IMG/VR virus record: IMGVR_UViG_3300028888_003076
From: a virus
DNA length: 12,647 bases
Direction: 5' to 3' (one strand)
This document shows positions 836 through 7,774 of the stretch, one piece after another (the stretch's first letter is position 1; each line of letters starts with the position of its first letter). The position numbers were made by a program, and so were the translations under genes. The notes under the pieces were generated by a model. That model saw only the letters and a program-made list of their open reading frames with translations, ran no database searches and was not told the DNA's origin.

Positions 836-864
836 ATTATATAATATTTTTTTAAAATTTTCAA
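836..864 (-). promoter_or_regulatory. Class-I sigma70-type promoter, TTGAAA-N17-TATAAT (copy 1 of 4 of a conserved ~50-bp promoter/leader cassette)
   Basis: Read on the minus strand the sequence is TTGAAAattttaaaaaaatattaTATAATatttatagaaaaataagaa. The -35 is at 864-859 and the -10 at 841-836. A near-identical element recurs at 3395-3423, 5294-5322 and 7746-7774. Confidence 0.65.
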
Positions 865-873
865 ATAAAAAAA

Positions 874-911
874 TACTTTACCTTAAAAAATAAGGTAAAG
901 TATTTTTTTTA
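874..911. terminator. Bidirectional rho-independent terminator
   Basis: Perfect 12-bp stem tactttacctta/taaggtaaagta (874-885 and 891-902) with an AAAAA loop. It is flanked by an A7 run upstream and a T8 run downstream, and lies between the MVP stop at 912 and the next promoter. Confidence 0.7.
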
Positions 912-3359
912 TTATTCATTACCGCCAATACTTTTTACGATACCATCAATAGGTAAACCGCGAAGAAGTTTATTAGTAACATCAGCAACGCTTTCGTCAT
1001 CCCCAGCAATAGAGTATGGAGCAACAGCATTAACAAGATTATTAGCAATTTCAGCATTAGCAGTTGCAGTAAGAGCTTCAATCAAACCAGGTCCAATAGA
1101 ATTCATAATTTTAGCAACAGTTTCAGCATAAGCGTTTTGCTTAGCCTTTTCAATTTCTAATAATTTATTCTTATAAAGAATTTCCTGATCTCTATCAGCC
1201 TGCTTACGTTTTCTTTCAGCATCAGCAATTGCATCACTCAGAACTTGAAGATCCTTTTCAGCCTGTTTAGAAGCAGTAGCTTCAGCTTCTTTAAGACGAT
1301 TAATTTCAGATTGAATATTAAGTTTATTAGTAGATTCAATACGATCAAGTTCAAGTTTATGAATCAGCTTTTGATTTCTGACTTCATACTCTTTCTTTTC
1401 TGCTTCCGCTAACTTGGTAGCGACTTCAACACGCTTATCAGCAGTAGAAAGTTCAAGAGCACGTTCAACCATATCATGCTGGTGCTCATTAAGCATAGAT
1501 TTAATTTCGCTTTCTACATCAATAGCAAGAACTTCGCAATCAGAAACATACATACCATTTTCAGGGAAGAAACGTCCAATATGCTTTGCCTTATCTGTAT
1601 CTTTTACCTCAGATTTATCACGGGCAATAGCTACATCTCTTACAATATCAATATAACGCTGATAAAATTCTTCAATAGTATAATTTTTAGCTGCTCTCTT
1701 TAATAAAGAACGCTCTCGATCGCACATAAATTTAACATAGTTATCAATATTAAACCAGCGATCCTGATACTTCTGATCAAAATCAACGCAATAAGATACT
1801 TTAATCCCGCAACGAACAAAATCTTTAGTCTCAACAGTTACAAAATCAGAAACTTTATTAGTTTCATGGCGTAAGAATACTGTATGAAGCAATTTATCTG
1901 TAGTTTTTGGCTTACCAGTAGAGAGCTGCAACTCTTCAAGAGTCTGATCATAATCCAGCATTACAGTCTGAGGGCCGCAAATCACTTTGCGATTACCATT
2001 CTTAGAGATAACATTTACAGCATATCCAGTCCAAACATCAACACTTACAATACCTTCATACTTAGTGTCAAGAGTAATAGTTCTAGGTTTGGTATAGCTA
2101 GTACCACGAGAAATATTAGCTTTAGCTTCTAAGTTTGCAAGAGTATCTCCCAGACTATTAGAAGTTGTGTAAGCAGTAAATTCATCAATAGAAATAGTTT
2201 TAAGTGATTTTTCAAGATTTTTTTCATTCAATTGCTCATTATAAGCAATTGCTTCAGCATTACCAGGATACATTAACTCGCACTGATGACGAGAGAGCTT
2301 ACGTTTTACGACAACTTCAAAACGAGGGTCAGGCAAATACATAAGAGGTCCGAGAACAGTTTTAATTTCGCCAGTTAATCTATTCATGATATATCGGCCT
2401 TCGCCCTTAGGAATAGCAATTGCGTGATGCATCATCTTACCATCGTAAGTAATAATAGCATGTTCAGGACGAGGATAATAAATCATCTGGTCTTTGCCAG
2501 TCAAAAATAACTCTTCACCTACTGGATGAATATTTTTCTTTTCATCAGTATATTCTGCAATTACTTTAATATAAATACCAGAAATAGGAGAAAGTTCAAC
2601 TGCACGGAATACATAACCACCCTTGGGGCTGGTTACAAAATTTTCAGTAGGTTTGGGAAATACAACAGCAGGACCATGAAGATAACGCTTATTGCCATCT
2701 TCATCCTTCAAAATACAGTATTCAAGACGCTCAAGAGTAACAGCATCACGGATATACCCATTACTGTCATCATTATTAATAGGAATTACTTCAATACCAG
2801 TAGGAGGAATGTAGAAAGAAACTTCAGTACCTTTAATTACAAGGATCTGACCATTAACATAAGTCTGCTGAGGATTCTCAATCAAATTACCTTCTGCATC
2901 TCGAATTTCGCCAATAGAATTACTAGCAGCATTAGCTTCATAAACACGAGCAAGAAGATATTGATTAGTTCGTAAAGCGTGACCACGAATAACCTTTGCC
3001 ATCTGACCAGGATAAAGAGCAAAACTTGCAGGACCAGTAATATTAATCTTTTTACCAATTTCCATCCCATCCGGTAAAACATTTGATGTACCAGCCGCCG
3101 GATGCTTATTGTCCTTAGCCGGATTCTTTAAAATAATATACCAGTTCTCTGGTGCAATAGTTAAAAGATGGACTGCATGTTCATAAGAACAAGGTTCAAA
3201 TCTCTTGGTTGTAGAATTAAATCTTACAAGACTATCACTTTGAGATAAAGACATTTTAGTCGGCCCAACTAAACAAGAAATAAAACCTTTAGTTGAGTCA
3301 AGAACATAGGCATATTCATTAGTAGAAAGAACTAAATCTTTCTAAATATTATCATTCAT
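912..3359 (-). CDS. Major vault protein (MVP)-like protein of about 815 aa. The true start is ATG 3359-3357, upstream of the track ORF 912..3254, and requires read-through of an in-frame TAG at 3344-3342.
   Basis: Recalled human MVP aligns along the whole length. The N-terminus YAYVLDSTKGFISCLVGPTKMSLSQSDSLVRF matches [43 protein letters not shown] matches PFPLYPGE. GEGRYIMNRLTGEIKTVLGPLMYL matches [51 protein letters not shown] matches [43 protein letters not shown] matches ITIETADHARLQLQLAY. RFFPENGMYVSDCEV matches AVFPQNGLVVSSVDV. A long cap-helix coiled coil follows, then SIGPGLIEAL matching AIGPSTIRDL. The RBS AAAGGAG (3374-3370) sits 10 nt before ATG 3359. The next in-frame ATG at 3254 has no RBS. 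The stop is TAA at 914-912. Confidence 0.8.
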
Positions 3360-3394
3360 TTATTTTTTTCTCCTTTATTATTTTTTCTATATAT

Positions 3395-3423
3395 ATTATA
3401 TCATTTTTTTATAAAAAAATCAA
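3395..3423 (-). promoter_or_regulatory. Class-I promoter TTGATT-N17-TGaTATAAT driving the MVP gene
   Basis: The -35 is at 3423-3418 and the -10 at 3400-3395, with an extended TG. The conserved leader atatatagaaaaaataataaaggag runs into the MVP RBS. Confidence 0.65.
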
Positions 3424-3432
3424 AGAAGAGAT

Positions 3433-3780
3433 TTATTTATCTTCTTTGATTTTCGCATATTCTTGTATAAAACGTAATCCTTCTATTGCGTATCTTTGTC
3501 TTTGATCCTCATACCGATAATTTTCTTCTGTTAACTAGGGATCTTCTTCAATGATTTGACGATGACCTTCAATAAGGTCTTGTTCAAATTGTTGTTCTTC
3601 TTCTGTGGGTTCATATTTAGGATCTTTTGCTACTTTTACTAAAAATGCAATAAATTTTTCTGTTTCTTCATCATCAATTAAATATTCACCTTTAATACAA
3701 AAGTTATACCATTTTTTAACAGGGATTGCAATTAACTAAAATAGAATTGAAAAAAAATCTTTTAAAAATGAATACATCAT
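3433..3780 (-). CDS. Hypothetical 115-aa protein with an N-terminal hydrophobic segment and an acidic C-terminus. It contains two in-frame TAG codons.
   Basis: ATG ATG at 3780-3775 is preceded by the RBS AAAGGAAC 8 nt upstream. The frame runs to TAA at 3435-3433 only if the TAGs at 3738-3736 and 3537-3535 are read as sense. With TAG as a stop, no ORF of 60 aa or more exists here, which explains the gap in the track. Confidence 0.55.
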
Positions 3781-3836
3781 AATGGGTGTTCCTTTCTTTA
3801 TAGTCAAATAAAAATCGTATTTATTCTTTTATAAAT

Positions 3837-3865
3837 TTGACTATCTCTAAAAAATTTTGTAAAAT
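3837..3865 (+). promoter_or_regulatory. Plus-strand promoter TTGACT-N17-TAAAAT for the FNT-like gene
   Basis: The -35 is ttgact at 3837-3842. A 17-nt spacer follows, then taaaat at 3860-3865. The RBS gaagga and ATG 3890 lie downstream. Confidence 0.5.
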
Positions 3866-6744: not shown

Positions 6745-6880
6745 AGAAATATAATATATATATTTTTATATAGATCTATTATAATATATATTTTTAATTA
6801 TATAATATATGGTATATAATAATATATATAATAGATAGTAATATAAATCTATAATTATAAATCATATTTGTGAATGGGGA
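6745..6880. repeat. AT-rich segment of (t)ataatatat-like repeats, a candidate DNA-unwinding element of the origin
   Basis: The segment is over 90% A+T, with 5 or more degenerate copies of ataatatata immediately following the iterons. Confidence 0.55.
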
Positions 6881-6961
6881 GTATTGGCGGCGAGGGGTCC
6901 ACTGGGAATGGGGGAAATAGAGGTTTTGGAAAATGGAATGAAAAATTGGCGGGAGGGTGTT

Positions 6962-7014
6962 TTAAAAAATGAAATGAAAATAAAAAATCCTTTCACTTTT
7001 TGAATAGTGAAAGG
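6962..7014 (-). terminator. Rho-independent terminator oriented for minus-strand transcription. It may insulate the origin from the upstream operon.
   Basis: The stem is cctttcact/agtgaaagg at 6989-6997 and 7006-7014, with an 8-nt loop. On the minus strand it is followed by attttttattttcatttcatttttt. Confidence 0.5.
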
Positions 7015-7045
7015 AAATATTGTTTTTGGAATGATATATTATGAT

Positions 7046-7125
7046 TTGTATTGTGTTATTGTGTTGCGTTGTGTTATATTACTGTATTACGTTATACTAC
7101 TGTATTGCGTTGCAGGTCTGGCCTC
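7046..7125. repeat. Degenerate GT-rich tandem repeats (ttgtgtt/attgcgtt/attacgtt units)
   Basis: The sequence reads tattgtgttattgtgttgcgttgtgttatattactgtattacgttatactactgtattgcgttgcag. It lies in a 300-bp non-coding stretch. Track ORF 7007..7261 is an artefact of this low-complexity DNA. Confidence 0.45.
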
Positions 7126-7318
7126 CGCCCGGTTTATCTTGACTTTTAATTTTCATCGTTGCCGTCAACCGTTTCTAAAAAACTCGTATTCCCACTTTAT
7201 CCAACTCAACTCTACGACAATTATAAGTAGAAATACGAGTTCATCTTCGTTTCTTATTTAACGGCAAGTAAATTTGTCAAATTTCAAGGTACACAATTAA
7301 AATTAATTCCGGCACTTA

Positions 7319-7711
7319 TTAGATGCCAAACTTATCAAAGAATTTATCTACTGTATCTTCTACCTTATTCTTACTCTTGGATACCTGTTCAGCACCAACC
7401 TCAAAGAGTCCATTCAACTTATCGAGCAAAGGAATAAACTTCAACACCTGCTCCATCACATAATTGACATCCTTAGTATTGAGATACATATCGGCCACGA
7501 CATAATTCTCAGGGACATCATGATTCTTAAAATATTCGTCAATATAAGCATTCCAGGCCGCGGCAAGCCCATTAGCTTTTTCATCCAACTTGCTTTCCTT
7601 CTGGAACTTAGCAAGTGCATTATTCAAAGTATCAGCAAAAGCCTGAGCCAACTCAACAGCATCTCCACCATTACGTAGATACTTCTCTACATCATTAAAA
7701 TTATAATTCAT
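7319..7711 (-). CDS. Hypothetical 130-aa helical, acidic protein in a stand-alone transcription unit
   Basis: Intact track ORF with the RBS AAGGAGA (7727-7721) before ATG 7711 and a TAA stop at 7321-7319. Class-I promoter copy 4 lies directly upstream. Confidence 0.65.
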   Translation of the reverse strand: MNYNFNDVEKYLRNGGDAVELAQAFADTLNNALAKFQKESKLDEKANGLAAAWNAYIDEYFKNHDVPENYVVADMYLNTKDVNYVMEQVLKFIPLLDKLNGLFEVGAEQVSKSKNKVEDTVDKFFDKFGI

Positions 7712-7745
7712 TTAAGAAATTCTCCTTTATTTATTTTCTATATAT

Positions 7746-7774
7746 ATTATATAATATTTTTTTAAAAAATTCAA
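7746..7774 (-). promoter_or_regulatory. Class-I promoter TTGAAT-N17-TATAAT (copy 4)
   Basis: The -35 is at 7774-7769 and the -10 at 7751-7746. The leader is the same as in the other copies. Confidence 0.65.

Follow-up and report, generated by a model that had tools for sequence, protein, structure and literature searches.

A recurrent promoter-leader cassette, probably of the early/middle class, in a family of TAG-recoded jumbo phages

Short cassettes made of a promoter, a leader and a ribosome binding site recur in the genomes of uncultured, TAG-recoded jumbo phages of gut and rumen, and are probably the clade-wide early/middle promoter of this family. The units which they drive are translatable in the standard genetic code, and include the amber-suppressor tRNA. 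The stretch analyzed (IMG/VR record IMGVR_UViG_3300028888_003076, 12,647 nucleotides; the window) matches, near-identically, the 239.6-kb IMG/VR jumbo phage IMGVR_UViG_3300028805_000039. Among the matches listed, all contigs with the cassette pattern are from gut or rumen MAGs, most of them assigned to Clostridia bins, and none is an isolate chromosome. The strong SD sequences and the MAG binning indicate that the hosts are probably Clostridia.

Four near-identical elements of about 60 bases were identified in the window by a repeat search, all on the minus strand (801-864, 3360-3423, 5259-5322, 7711-7774), each terminating in an SD and a start codon (ATG). They are the copies that the earlier note had reported, and were retrieved as well by scanning for the 18-nt core TATAATATATATAGAAAA, which, with up to 2 mismatches, occurs four times in the window, exactly at the four copies and always on the minus strand, against 0.01 matches expected from dinucleotide-preserving shuffles (0 of 200 reached 4). 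The consensus string given in that note corresponds letter for letter to copy 3; copy 1 features the variant sequence ATTTATAG. All four share the TTGAnn-17-TATAAT spacing, in keeping with the promoter-leader-RBS cassette of sigma-70/sigma-A geometry that had been proposed.

799..864, minus strand: class I cassette, copy 1; -35 TTGAAA at 864-859, -10 TATAAT at 841-836, ATTTATAGAAAA at 835-824, predicted +1 A at 829, SD GAGG at 814-811, ATG at 801-799
801-475, minus strand: gene behind copy 1, a 108-aa ORFan
3357..3423, minus strand: class I cassette, copy 2; -35 TTGATT at 3423-3418, TGa-TATAAT at 3400-3395, predicted +1 at 3388, SD GGAG at 3373-3370, ATG at 3359-3357
3359-912, minus strand: gene behind copy 2, an 815-aa MVP homologue with TAG at codon 6
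5257..5322, minus strand: class I cassette, copy 3; -35 TTGAAT at 5322-5317, -10 at 5299-5294, predicted +1 at 5287, ATG at 5259-5257; followed by a 72-aa gene, an 81-aa gene and a Cys-rich ORF
7709..7774, minus strand: class I cassette, copy 4; -35 TTGAAT at 7774-7769, -10 at 7751-7746, predicted +1 at 7739, ATG at 7711-7709
7711-7319, minus strand: gene behind copy 4, a 130-aa ORFan
within 7971..11991: comparator class II promoters, perfect TTGACA-17-TGnTATAAT with a variable downstream region
7999-7971, 8274-8246, 9650-9622, 9884-9856, 10811-10783, 11783-11755 and 11991-11963, minus strand: class II sites
8713-8741, plus strand: the single class II site in this orientation

In the right part of the window, which is richer in G+C, class II promoters precede small genes free of TAG as well as non-coding stretches. 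In contrast to what the note had stated, the units behind the cassettes are not short throughout, since the one behind copy 1 spans about 3 kb and holds about 8 small ORFs, up to the next terminator-plus-promoter.

Identity among the four copies spans from TTGA to the SD/ATG; no alignment is possible in the flanks on either side or in the coding sequences, which argues against a duplication taking in coding sequence. Four is the correct count inside the window, but too low as a total. In the near-identical IMG/VR contig another copy, the fifth, is located at L003:15525, about 3 kb past the left end of the window, and about 18 are found in 41.7 kb of the source genome. The alternative named at the outset, that these are the only copies and were duplicated along with coding sequence, is at odds with the existence of further copies and with the unrelated genes behind them. 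The low G+C content of this region (27–35%) makes A/T-rich matches easier, but chance similarity, or a recent duplication local to this region, has a practically negligible probability in view of the shuffles, the unrelated flanks, and the occurrence of copies elsewhere in the genome and in over 70 related contigs.

One 40-nt consensus, TTGAttTTT-(T/A)-AAAAAATAT-n-a-TATAAT-ATATATA-(G/T)-AAA, recurs in over 70 related phages. Relatives collected by way of MVP only (1.6 Mb) hold 426 unique TTGA-N19-TATAAT sites, of which 81% match ATATATAGAAAA with at most 4 mismatches, against about 1% expected. The consensus calculated for each genome is steady as MVP identity falls from 100% to 55% and as G+C ranges from 30 to 44%. 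Position by position, information stays high between -35 and +4, and is near zero further downstream. Conservation past the hexamers, as had been suggested, amounts to about 22 bits over and above TTGA and TATAAT, from 428 sites chosen by the hexamers only; recognition by sigma-A is not known to require as much. This excess may be due in part to common descent and homogenisation of copies, and in part to a site for another factor. Within one genome, cassettes form sub-families which have both promoter and leader in common, and homology between relatives may stop exactly at the -35 box; the notion of a portable promoter module thus gains support.

The core promoter consists of a -35 box TTGA(t/a/c)(t/a), a 17-bp spacer in which a T-tract is followed by an A-tract, and a -10 box TATAAT. 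Next come an invariant discriminator of alternating A and T (ATATAT) and the start region A-(G/T)-AAA. Leaders are 23–29 nt long, A-rich and unstructured, with a strong SD, and the distance from the -10 box to the ATG peaks at 29–35 nt. The predicted 5' 60 nt have MFE values of -0.6 to -6.1 kcal/mol (z = -0.6 to +0.4). An RNA polymerase holoenzyme with a SigA-type sigma would bind the -35 and -10 boxes, and the A/T-rich discriminator would melt easily, transcription starting at the A seven nt past the -10 box. Both this start site and the strength of the promoter are predictions from the DNA sequence. The short open leader would favour efficient translation, and a terminator located upstream would insulate each unit.

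Terminators are often fused to the cassettes. Three hairpins in the window are of this type, or terminator-like.

867..909: 19-bp hairpin, intrinsic terminator after the MVP gene (terminator scan; -21 kcal/mol, z = -7.9)
3420..3449, minus strand: 10-bp A/U-rich hairpin (-10.3 kcal/mol, z = -2.5), whose 3' arm includes the TTGA of copy 2 and is followed by TTTTTTT
7330-7308: terminator-like hairpin after the 130-aa ORFan of the copy 4 unit

The hairpin at 867..909 ends 6 nt before the -35 box of copy 1, forming a terminator/promoter composite; the one at 3420..3449 may be a weak terminator of the upstream 115-aa gene. In the relatives, adjacent hairpins of -8 kcal/mol or stronger were found at 49% of 344 sites, against 8% of shuffles, and end 0–3 nt from TTGA or overlap it. 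About half of the copies feature an intrinsic terminator directly upstream, with the U-tract overlapping the -35 box, which explains the occurrence of TTGATT in place of TTGACA. T residues at -31 and -30 are found in 96–97% of sites with a hairpin, against 62–63% of those without.

Genes behind the cassette are depleted in TAG codons. First genes of at least 300 aa contain 5 TAG in 46,889 codons, against 455 in 139,399 for other ORFs of that size, a roughly 30-fold lower rate, in which few gene families, mainly MVP and DUF2828, are represented. Cassettes were found upstream of 217 of 560 TAG-free ORFs, and of 11 of 150 ORFs with at least 2 TAG (odds ratio 8, p = 2e-15). Cassette-driven genes encode ORFans, MVP, DUF2828/DUF7788, metallophosphatase, RNA ligase, exonuclease, NAMPT and sigma-70 proteins, with RNA-repair and metabolic functions represented; TAG-rich ORFs encode tail and tail-fibre proteins, HNH endonucleases and reverse transcriptase. 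Cassettes reside within 150 nt upstream of 55 of 258 tRNAs (2% for random positions), and mark suppressor tRNA(CUA) genes in 9 of 17 cases by the strict pattern, and in 11 of the 13 read by eye. A suppressor tRNA made from the cassette would allow later reading of TAG-rich genes (tail fibres, homing endonucleases, reverse transcriptase). The MVP gene of the source phage has a single TAG, at codon 6, so some cassette-driven product depends on the code switch. As the genes behind the cassette are TAG-poor, and the TAG-rich tail-fibre genes lack it, the class would be early/middle rather than late, the early timing being suggested by gene content and codon usage. Taking MVP as a major virion protein, and the cassette as a late promoter for structural genes, would suit its position before a large, presumably abundant 815-aa protein, and the use by the phage of TAG recoding, which goes with late genes. 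This reading is highly improbable, being contradicted by TAG depletion, by cassette-free tail genes, and by a regulon in which tRNAs, metabolic genes and a sigma factor occur. By its Pfam matches (MVP_shoulder 9e-19, Vault_3 1e-8), the 815-aa protein is homologous to major vault protein, and it has no PHROG structural match. The TAG-free regulon fits the frame of recoded gut phages, in which TAG is read as Gln and concentrated in late/lytic genes, and suppressor tRNAs are phage-encoded (Borges et al., 10.1101/2021.08.26.457843; suppressor-tRNA/theta-ribozyme work, PMC10879173). The word promoter does not occur in the former, and refers to T7 only in the latter; a promoter class in front of the suppressor tRNA adds to this literature.

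Conservation extending into transcribed DNA could denote a regulatory RNA leader (riboswitch, attenuator, or site for a translational regulator), and leaders are indeed nearly identical up to the SD in copy sub-families of one genome. This is very unlikely, because the predicted 5' ends are devoid of structure, family-wide information drops past +4, leaving only A-richness and the SD, an Rfam search gave no match, and SD-less tRNA genes lie behind the same promoter too. The suggestion of a leader setting timing through RNA structure is not sustained either, given the unstructured leaders and the drop past +4. Alternatively, the T-tract/A-tract spacer may be an operator, at which a dimeric phage or host DNA-binding protein shuts off or activates the whole class at a set time. 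Residues from -31 to -27 and from -23 to -18 are kept family-wide at frequencies of 0.7–0.9, and a palindrome, TTTTTATAAAAA, is centred near -24/-25. Its centre and length vary by copy (TTTTATAAAA, TTTTTTAAAAAA, AAAATTTTAAAA), which fits a need for DNA shape or composition better than base-specific contacts by a dimer. The T-run is moreover partly explained by the terminator, and no candidate regulator was identified; an operator is thus unlikely, though less so than an RNA leader.

Possible, but doubtful, is that the extended consensus (T/A-tract spacer, ATATAT, A(G/T)AAA) is a private code for a phage SigA-like sigma, or for a different phage protein associated with RNA polymerase. Firing would be weak at first, by host sigma-A, and the phage sigma, encoded behind the same cassette, would then amplify the regulon. 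If so, class I would reinforce itself and be of the 'middle' type, set apart from the canonical class II promoters. Relatives have a phage sigma, about 300 aa long, that comprises regions 1.2, 2, 3 and 4 and is best matched by the Firmicute RpoD model from position 75–93 onward, region 1.1 missing. Its recognition segments, FSTYATYWIRQ for the -10 and ERIRQIE for the -35 box, are SigA-like and fit TTGA/TATAAT. In many clades a cassette directly precedes the sigma gene, with 3–7 sites per 8.8 kb there. The 22 extra bits, the second, canonical promoter type in the same genome, and the lack of the pattern on isolate chromosomes among the matches listed point the same way. Against this, the sigma gene is absent from about 42 kb of the source genome and from the best 80 matches listed, the K/R difference at the equivalent of E. 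coli R584 does not follow TTGAtt versus TTGAC, and TT at -31/-30 is due to the terminator U-tract, not to a changed -35 specificity. By comparison, gp28 and gp33/34 of SPO1 are strongly diverged sigmas with motifs other than those of sigma-A; the one found here is RpoD-like in all DNA-reading regions. Early sigma-A promoters and a phage sigma in a large phage are otherwise features of the Bacillus phage SPO1 (PMC13401047), a large lytic Firmicute phage which uses host sigma-A promoters for early genes and its own sigmas for the next stages. It also speaks against a private code that extra consensus is known in T4 early promoters, which are read by unmodified host polymerase; these 'uber' UP/-35/TGn/-10 promoters are viewed as optimised for capture of that enzyme (Hinton 2010, PMC2988021). 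They resemble the cassette as phage early promoters of sigma-70 geometry with consensus beyond the hexamers. T4 has the additional consensus in the upstream UP element, the cassette in the spacer, the discriminator and +1 to +4; in the latter, TGn is mostly absent, the -35 box is cut to TTGA, and no Alt-like modifier is known.

Read as an early/middle promoter, the cassette, here known from its sequence, resembles the PeSL (promoter-early stem-loop) of T4-type phages (Arbiol et al. 2010, PMC2839356; Comeau et al. 2014, PMC4122927). Both are small intergenic composites, featuring a strong sigma-70-type early promoter, a terminator able to overlap the -35 box, and a 3' SD and ATG. Either kind is present dozens of times per genome in near-identical form, mostly before ORFans, where close relatives differ in gene content, and homology between relatives can stop inside them or at their edge. 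The cassette resides in an unrelated phage clade, with a probably Gram-positive host, and differs in consensus. Its stem-loop is almost always upstream of, or overlaps, the -35 box, and the G/C-tract stems of RB49/phi1 PeSLs were not seen; unlike PeSLs, it also drives tRNAs and the sigma gene. Repeated near-identical cassettes might, as a side effect, provide sites at which gene modules recombine, in the manner of PeSLs. Compared with all DNA, cassettes are enriched in recombination junctions (9.4% against 2.4%), but, in contrast to PeSLs, not significantly so compared with intergenic DNA (18.8% against 13.5%, p = 0.11), so a special role in recombination is not demonstrated. Gene content between cassettes differs widely among relatives, and in one pair (L016 and L017) identity is 100% through the MVP gene and its cassette, the sequences being unrelated from the base before TTGA.

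Short cassettes of ~60 nt joining a promoter, a leader and a Shine-Dalgarno (SD) sequence mark the minus strand of the window. They were sorted by repeat search into one family, D1, called here class I, and lie upstream of the following genes, of which only the major vault protein (MVP) homologue has a Pfam or PHROG match:

801-864, minus strand, class I cassette copy 1; behind it a 108-aa ORFan (801-475, minus), then further small ORFs
3360-3423, minus strand, class I cassette copy 2; behind it the 815-aa MVP homologue (3359-912, minus)
5259-5322, minus strand, class I cassette copy 3; behind it a 72-aa gene, an 81-aa gene and a Cys-rich ORF, all minus
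7711-7774, minus strand, class I cassette copy 4; behind it a 130-aa ORFan, minus

In the direction of transcription each copy features TTGAnn, a 17-nt spacer, TATAAT, AT(A/T)TATAGAAAA, an A-rich stretch, the SD and, 7–9 nt after the SD, the ATG. Identity between copies begins at TTGA and ends at the start codon, and neither the upstream flanks nor the coding sequences can be aligned. The 18-nt core, searched with up to 2 mismatches, has exactly 4 matches in the window, all on the minus strand, against 0.01 expected from shuffles. In the promoter scan all four copies match 10–11 of the 12 hexamer positions with a 17-bp spacer. The -10 is a perfect TATAAT in 4/4 copies, at a distance typical of sigma-70/sigma-A promoters (17±1 bp), and the -35 hexamers (TTGAAA, TTGATT, TTGAAT and TTGAAT) are related, as in that class, to TTGACA. 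An extended -10 (TG at -15/-14) is not a feature of the cassette, being found in copy 2 only (TGa-TATAAT); the frequency of G at -14 is 0.36 family-wide. Transcription is predicted to start at an A seven nt past the -10, preceded by T.

The window corresponds, in reverse orientation, to L003:713-13359, a locus of the 239,565-bp contig IMGVR_UViG_3300028805_000039 (a source-like genome), which encodes a protein 100% identical to the MVP. The 815-aa protein was identified by its Pfam matches (MVP_shoulder 9e-19, Vault_3 1e-8). Orthologues are found at 40–81% identity on >80 IMG/VR contigs of 100–400 kb, and the 735-kb huge phages LR756501/LR756503 have one with 41% identity. The whole window has no megablast match in GenBank phages, and tblastn with the MVP retrieved from the same set three unannotated huge-phage records only, and no close annotated phage. 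Phage MVPs are the subject of one report, a 2023 preprint silent on promoters and recoding (10.1101/2023.11.10.566534). Codon 6 of the MVP is TAG, orthologues have CAG or CAA at that site, and in-frame TAG occurs also in several other window genes, from which it follows that TAG means glutamine in this phage. The MVP gene is TAG-free in nearly all relatives; with TAG at codon 6, translation of the window gene (912-3359, minus) would wait for a suppressor tRNA.

The four copies counted in the earlier note are all present in the window, but the figure is an undercount for the phage. A fifth copy resides in L003 ~3 kb past the left end of the window, one more further on, and ~18 were found in 41.7 kb of the source-like genome (four pieces, partly fetched through the motif itself). 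The transcription units, described in that note as all short, are not always so: the unit of copy 1 spans ~3 kb and ~8 small ORFs and ends at a 16-bp hairpin, with the next cassette (L003:15525) 5 nt on. Matches to the 23-nt and 18-nt cores were found on at least well over a hundred IMG/VR stretches. A less biased sample, made of 1.6 Mb fetched through the MVP gene alone, in which sites were chosen only as TTGA-N19-TATAAT, holds 426 unique sites, and ATATATAGAAAA (up to 4 mismatches) directly follows the -10 in 81% of these, vs ~1% expected. The consensus of single genomes changes neither with MVP identity (100–55%) nor with G+C (30–44%). In the position table T prevails at -31 to -27, A at -23 to -18, TAT at -17 to -15, ATATAT at -6 to -1, A at +1, G or T at +2, and AA at +3/+4, and hardly any information is left before -36 or after about +15. 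Positions -31/-30 may be T, A or C family-wide, TTGA itself being fixed by site selection. Conservation outside the fixed hexamers amounts to ~22 bits, a figure inflated by related copies, and the impression that more than sigma-70 recognition is involved was thus justified. A G at +2, considered as a core-recognition-element contact, is restricted to the source clade, and was discarded in this role.

Class I cassettes coexist with promoters of a second class. The right part of the window (from ~7.9 kb) holds, according to the promoter scan, eight perfect TTGACA-17-TGnTATAAT promoters (class II), which carry the extended -10 TGn and are followed by variable sequences. Class II sites lie in G+C-richer DNA, ahead of small TAG-free genes and of non-coding stretches, are rare near MVP in the family sample, and are used by more distant clades devoid of the cassette, as upstream of MVP in the related locus L064. 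The classes differ in the spacer and in the region past the -10, and are not sharply separated at the -35, since intermediates exist (e.g. L003:17797). Some class II promoters (window 7999, 8274 and 8713, plus a tandem of three in L003) lead into G+C-rich, hairpin-forming sequences with no ORF and no Rfam match at gathering score, which may be small RNAs:

window 7800-8230, minus strand, possible small-RNA stretch behind class II promoters
window 8745-8820, plus strand, possible small-RNA stretch behind class II promoters
L003:347-740, possible small-RNA stretch behind class II promoters

Many class I cassettes are fused to a terminator-like hairpin. A hairpin at least as stable as -8 kcal/mol is found within the 45 nt upstream in 49% of 344 unique sites, vs 8% of shuffles, and it usually ends 0–3 nt before TTGA, or overlaps it. 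T is found at -31/-30 in 96–97% of the sites with a hairpin vs 62–63% of those without, and the shift from TTGACA to TTGATT is largely explained by a terminator U-tract running through the -35. In the window, a 19-bp hairpin precedes copy 1 (-21 kcal/mol, z = -7.9), a 10-bp hairpin includes the TTGA of copy 2, and the fold test revealed no hairpin at copies 3 and 4. Leaders measure 27–29 nt in the window, if transcription starts at the A seven nt past the -10; across the family, spacings between -10 and ATG are most often 29–35 nt. In none of the four predicted mRNAs are the 5'-terminal 60 nt more stably folded than shuffles, and the leader has no match in Rfam, so that a structured regulatory leader is unlikely. 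The leader looks rather like an open, A-rich ribosome-loading site.

The proposal of a portable promoter module has some support. Within one genome, copies form sub-families with a common discriminator, leader and SD, a pattern which fits the spread or homogenisation of whole cassettes, and one exact joint was found at the -35: loci L016 and L017 of two related phages share MVP and its cassette at 100% identity, and the two sequences are unrelated beginning with the base that precedes TTGA. Gene content between cassettes varies widely among phages with 71–81% identical MVPs, and neighbouring genes are mostly unique. Cassettes, which make 2.4% of the DNA, contain 18 of 191 unique high-identity homology ends (9.4%; p = 8e-7). 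When intergenic ends only are considered, the cassette share (18.8%) is not above the baseline set by intergenic DNA (13.5%; p = 0.11). Such sub-families, joints and variable gene content match what has been described for the promoter-early stem-loop cassettes (PeSLs) of T4-type phages, at which exchange occurs (PMC2839356, PMC4122927); for the present cassettes a special role in recombination is a possibility. As PeSLs, the cassettes combine a strong sigma-70-like promoter and a stable stem-loop in one intergenic unit, and are multicopy and mainly located before ORFans in variable regions.

Genes located behind the cassette are markedly poor in TAG. TAG accounts for 5 of 46,889 codons in those of at least 300 aa and for 455 of 139,399 in the remaining ORFs of this length, and no TAG was found in 38 cassette-driven genes of 100–149 aa. 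Of 560 TAG-free ORFs, 217 have a cassette in the 110 nt preceding them, against 11 of the 150 ORFs that contain at least two TAG (odds ratio 8, p = 2e-15). Cassette-driven genes encode MVP, a DUF2828/DUF7788 protein, a metallophosphatase, an RNA ligase, an exonuclease, an HD protein, a methyltransferase-like protein, NAMPT, a flotillin-like protein and a sigma-70 factor. TAG-rich ORFs encode tail and tail-fibre proteins, HNH homing endonucleases and a reverse transcriptase. Of 258 tRNAs, 55 have a cassette up to 150 nt upstream, as do 2% of random positions; the source-like genome contributes tRNA-Val, Pro, Asn and Lys. The amber-suppressor tRNA(CUA) follows a cassette in 9 of 17 cases when the strict pattern is required; inspection of 13 by eye gave 11. 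TAG avoidance, the placement of the suppressor tRNA, and the published model in which recoded stop codons mark late genes (10.1101/2021.08.26.457843) together lead us to infer that the cassette is an early/middle promoter class, its timing being predicted. It would serve genes which must be readable in the host code, plus the code-changing device itself. A search for a third, 'late' motif by 7-mer enrichment upstream of TAG-rich genes across the family yielded only generic A/T words, and a GTATAAAAAG box in 4 cases. In the window, the divergent intergenic region at 3795-3850, flanked by two TAG-containing genes, has ATTTGACTAT on both strands, possibly another kind of promoter or operator, used by TAG-rich genes. 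The TAG-rich class includes a formate/nitrite-transporter homologue (3890-4520, plus strand; Pfam Form_Nir_trans, 1.6e-20) with four in-frame TAG codons, a membrane transporter unusual for a phage.

Known T4 promoters provide terms of comparison. A late promoter of the gp55 type (TATAAATA at the -10, no -35) is contradicted by the TTGA found at 17 bp in all copies, as by the TAG-poor, non-structural regulon. Middle promoters (MotA/AsiA) are no better match, as the cassette has no MotA box (a/tTGCTTtA) at -30, the -35 region being TTGAnnTTT. T4 early promoters (PMC2988021) likewise combine sigma-70 geometry and extra consensus. The extended consensus could be read by a phage factor, and a sigma of ~300 aa, comprising regions 1.2, 2, 3 and 4, is present in many relatives. 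Its best match is a Firmicute RpoD model, with scores under the equivalog cut-off, and the match runs from position 75–93 to the end, which indicates that the protein lacks region 1.1. The gene has no TAG, lies directly behind a cassette in many clades, and is surrounded by cassette-dense DNA; examples are:

L046:15466-16380, phage RpoD/SigA-like sigma gene of a relative, usually behind a class I cassette
L087:2640-3497, same type of gene and setting
L055:14148-15029, same type of gene and setting

The sigma gene was not found by tblastn in the available parts of the source genome (~42 kb), nor is the source contig among the best 80 matches listed in a profile scan of IMG/VR. As the sigma gene must itself be transcribed, host sigma-A has to be capable of using the cassette at least initially; an exception would be a factor injected with the phage DNA. 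The idea that K/R at the sigma residue equivalent to E. coli R584 accounts for TTGAtt in place of TTGAC was dropped, since no correlation was seen across clades, and the terminator U-tract accounts for the TT. We hold it unlikely that the 40-nt consensus is a private promoter grammar of a SigA paralogue lacking region 1.1, in a circuit timing the switch of TAG from stop to glutamine. Host polymerase would then fire a first set of cassettes, that of the sigma gene among them, and the phage sigma would take over and amplify a standard-code regulon inclusive of the amber-suppressor tRNA. If true, a self-reinforcing circuit would set the time of the switch, unlocking late genes.

In bacterial genomes all listed matches to the promoter pattern are on gut/rumen MAG contigs, many of phage size, mostly binned as Oscillospiraceae, Ruminococcus, Lachnospiraceae or Acutalibacteraceae; the scan gave no evidence of a host promoter being mimicked. 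Binning of these contigs and the strong SD sequences suggest that the host is probably a member of Clostridia. Judged by sequence, the early/middle cassette is a new family, from an unrelated uncultured clade with a probable Gram-positive host. A -35 embedded in a terminator U-tract, and a regulon defined by a missing recoded codon, with the suppressor tRNA included, are not described in the papers cited here on PeSLs, T4 early promoters and recoding. The word 'promoter' is absent from the recoding preprint (10.1101/2021.08.26.457843), and is used for T7 only in the theta-ribozyme paper (PMC10879173). The cassette would be a sequence marker of the pre-switch, standard-code regulon in uncultured 100–400-kb gut/rumen phages, and scanning for it could tell early/middle genes from TAG-rich late genes with no need of expression data. 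It would place suppressor tRNA, sigma factor and vault-protein homologue in one temporal class, and suggests what launches the genetic-code switch, on which the cited recoding papers are silent at the promoter level. The PeSL idea of insulated, exchangeable gene slots would be extended past T4-type phages of Gram-negative hosts. Having promoter, leader and SD in 60 nt, with an optional terminator, cassettes are also candidate compact parts for expression in Clostridia-like hosts.

Additional elements were noticed in the window. At least 12 copies of the palindromic iteron CGGTAAAWTTTACCG are found at 6320-6740 in direct and inverted arrays, which adjoin a (TA)-rich stretch, A/T-rich at 6745-6850; the whole looks like a replication origin or partition site. 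Degenerate short tandem repeats (TGTGTTAT / TACTGTATTRCGTT units), non-coding, occupy 7025-7135, just past a bidirectional hairpin (6988-7015). The 12000-12647 interval reaches 50% G+C, differs in composition from the remainder of the window, and may be a module of different origin; it contains:

12114-12190, minus strand, tRNA-Glu(UUC)
12234-12617, minus strand, 127-aa gene

Relatives carry 77 unique instances of an element, absent from the window, framed as AARGRC-N3-9-(A/C)CAGCAA ... GYCTTG, with an outer stem GRCnnn/nnnGYC. It often resides right behind a class I promoter, 5–15 nt ahead of a tRNA gene, the suppressor tRNA included. Its likeness to Dictyostelium Class I RNA (RF01414, 19.9 bits; common motif CUUACAGCAA) is weak and sub-threshold. 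Some of these elements enclose a circularly permuted tRNA-like module, made of T-arm, 3' acceptor and CCA, a short linker, and 5' acceptor and D-arm. Examples of both are:

L004:4097-4185, ACAGCAA-framed element
L011:2039-2123, ACAGCAA-framed element
L012:4623-4699, ACAGCAA-framed element
L218:680-885, ACAGCAA-framed element
L012:4425-4560, permuted tRNA-like module
L017:5485-5620, permuted tRNA-like module
L028:199-340, permuted tRNA-like module
L039:1735-1880, permuted tRNA-like module

The modules have sub-threshold Rfam hits only, to tmRNA and permuted-tmRNA. As phages with these modules also encode DUF2828/DUF7788, RNA ligase and RlaP, the modules might conceivably be permuted tRNAs or Y-RNA-like tRNA mimics. 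ROOL RNA (L060:32-627, 350 bits) and RAGATH-33 RNA (L017:6150-6278, 122.7 bits) adjoin tRNA arrays in relatives.
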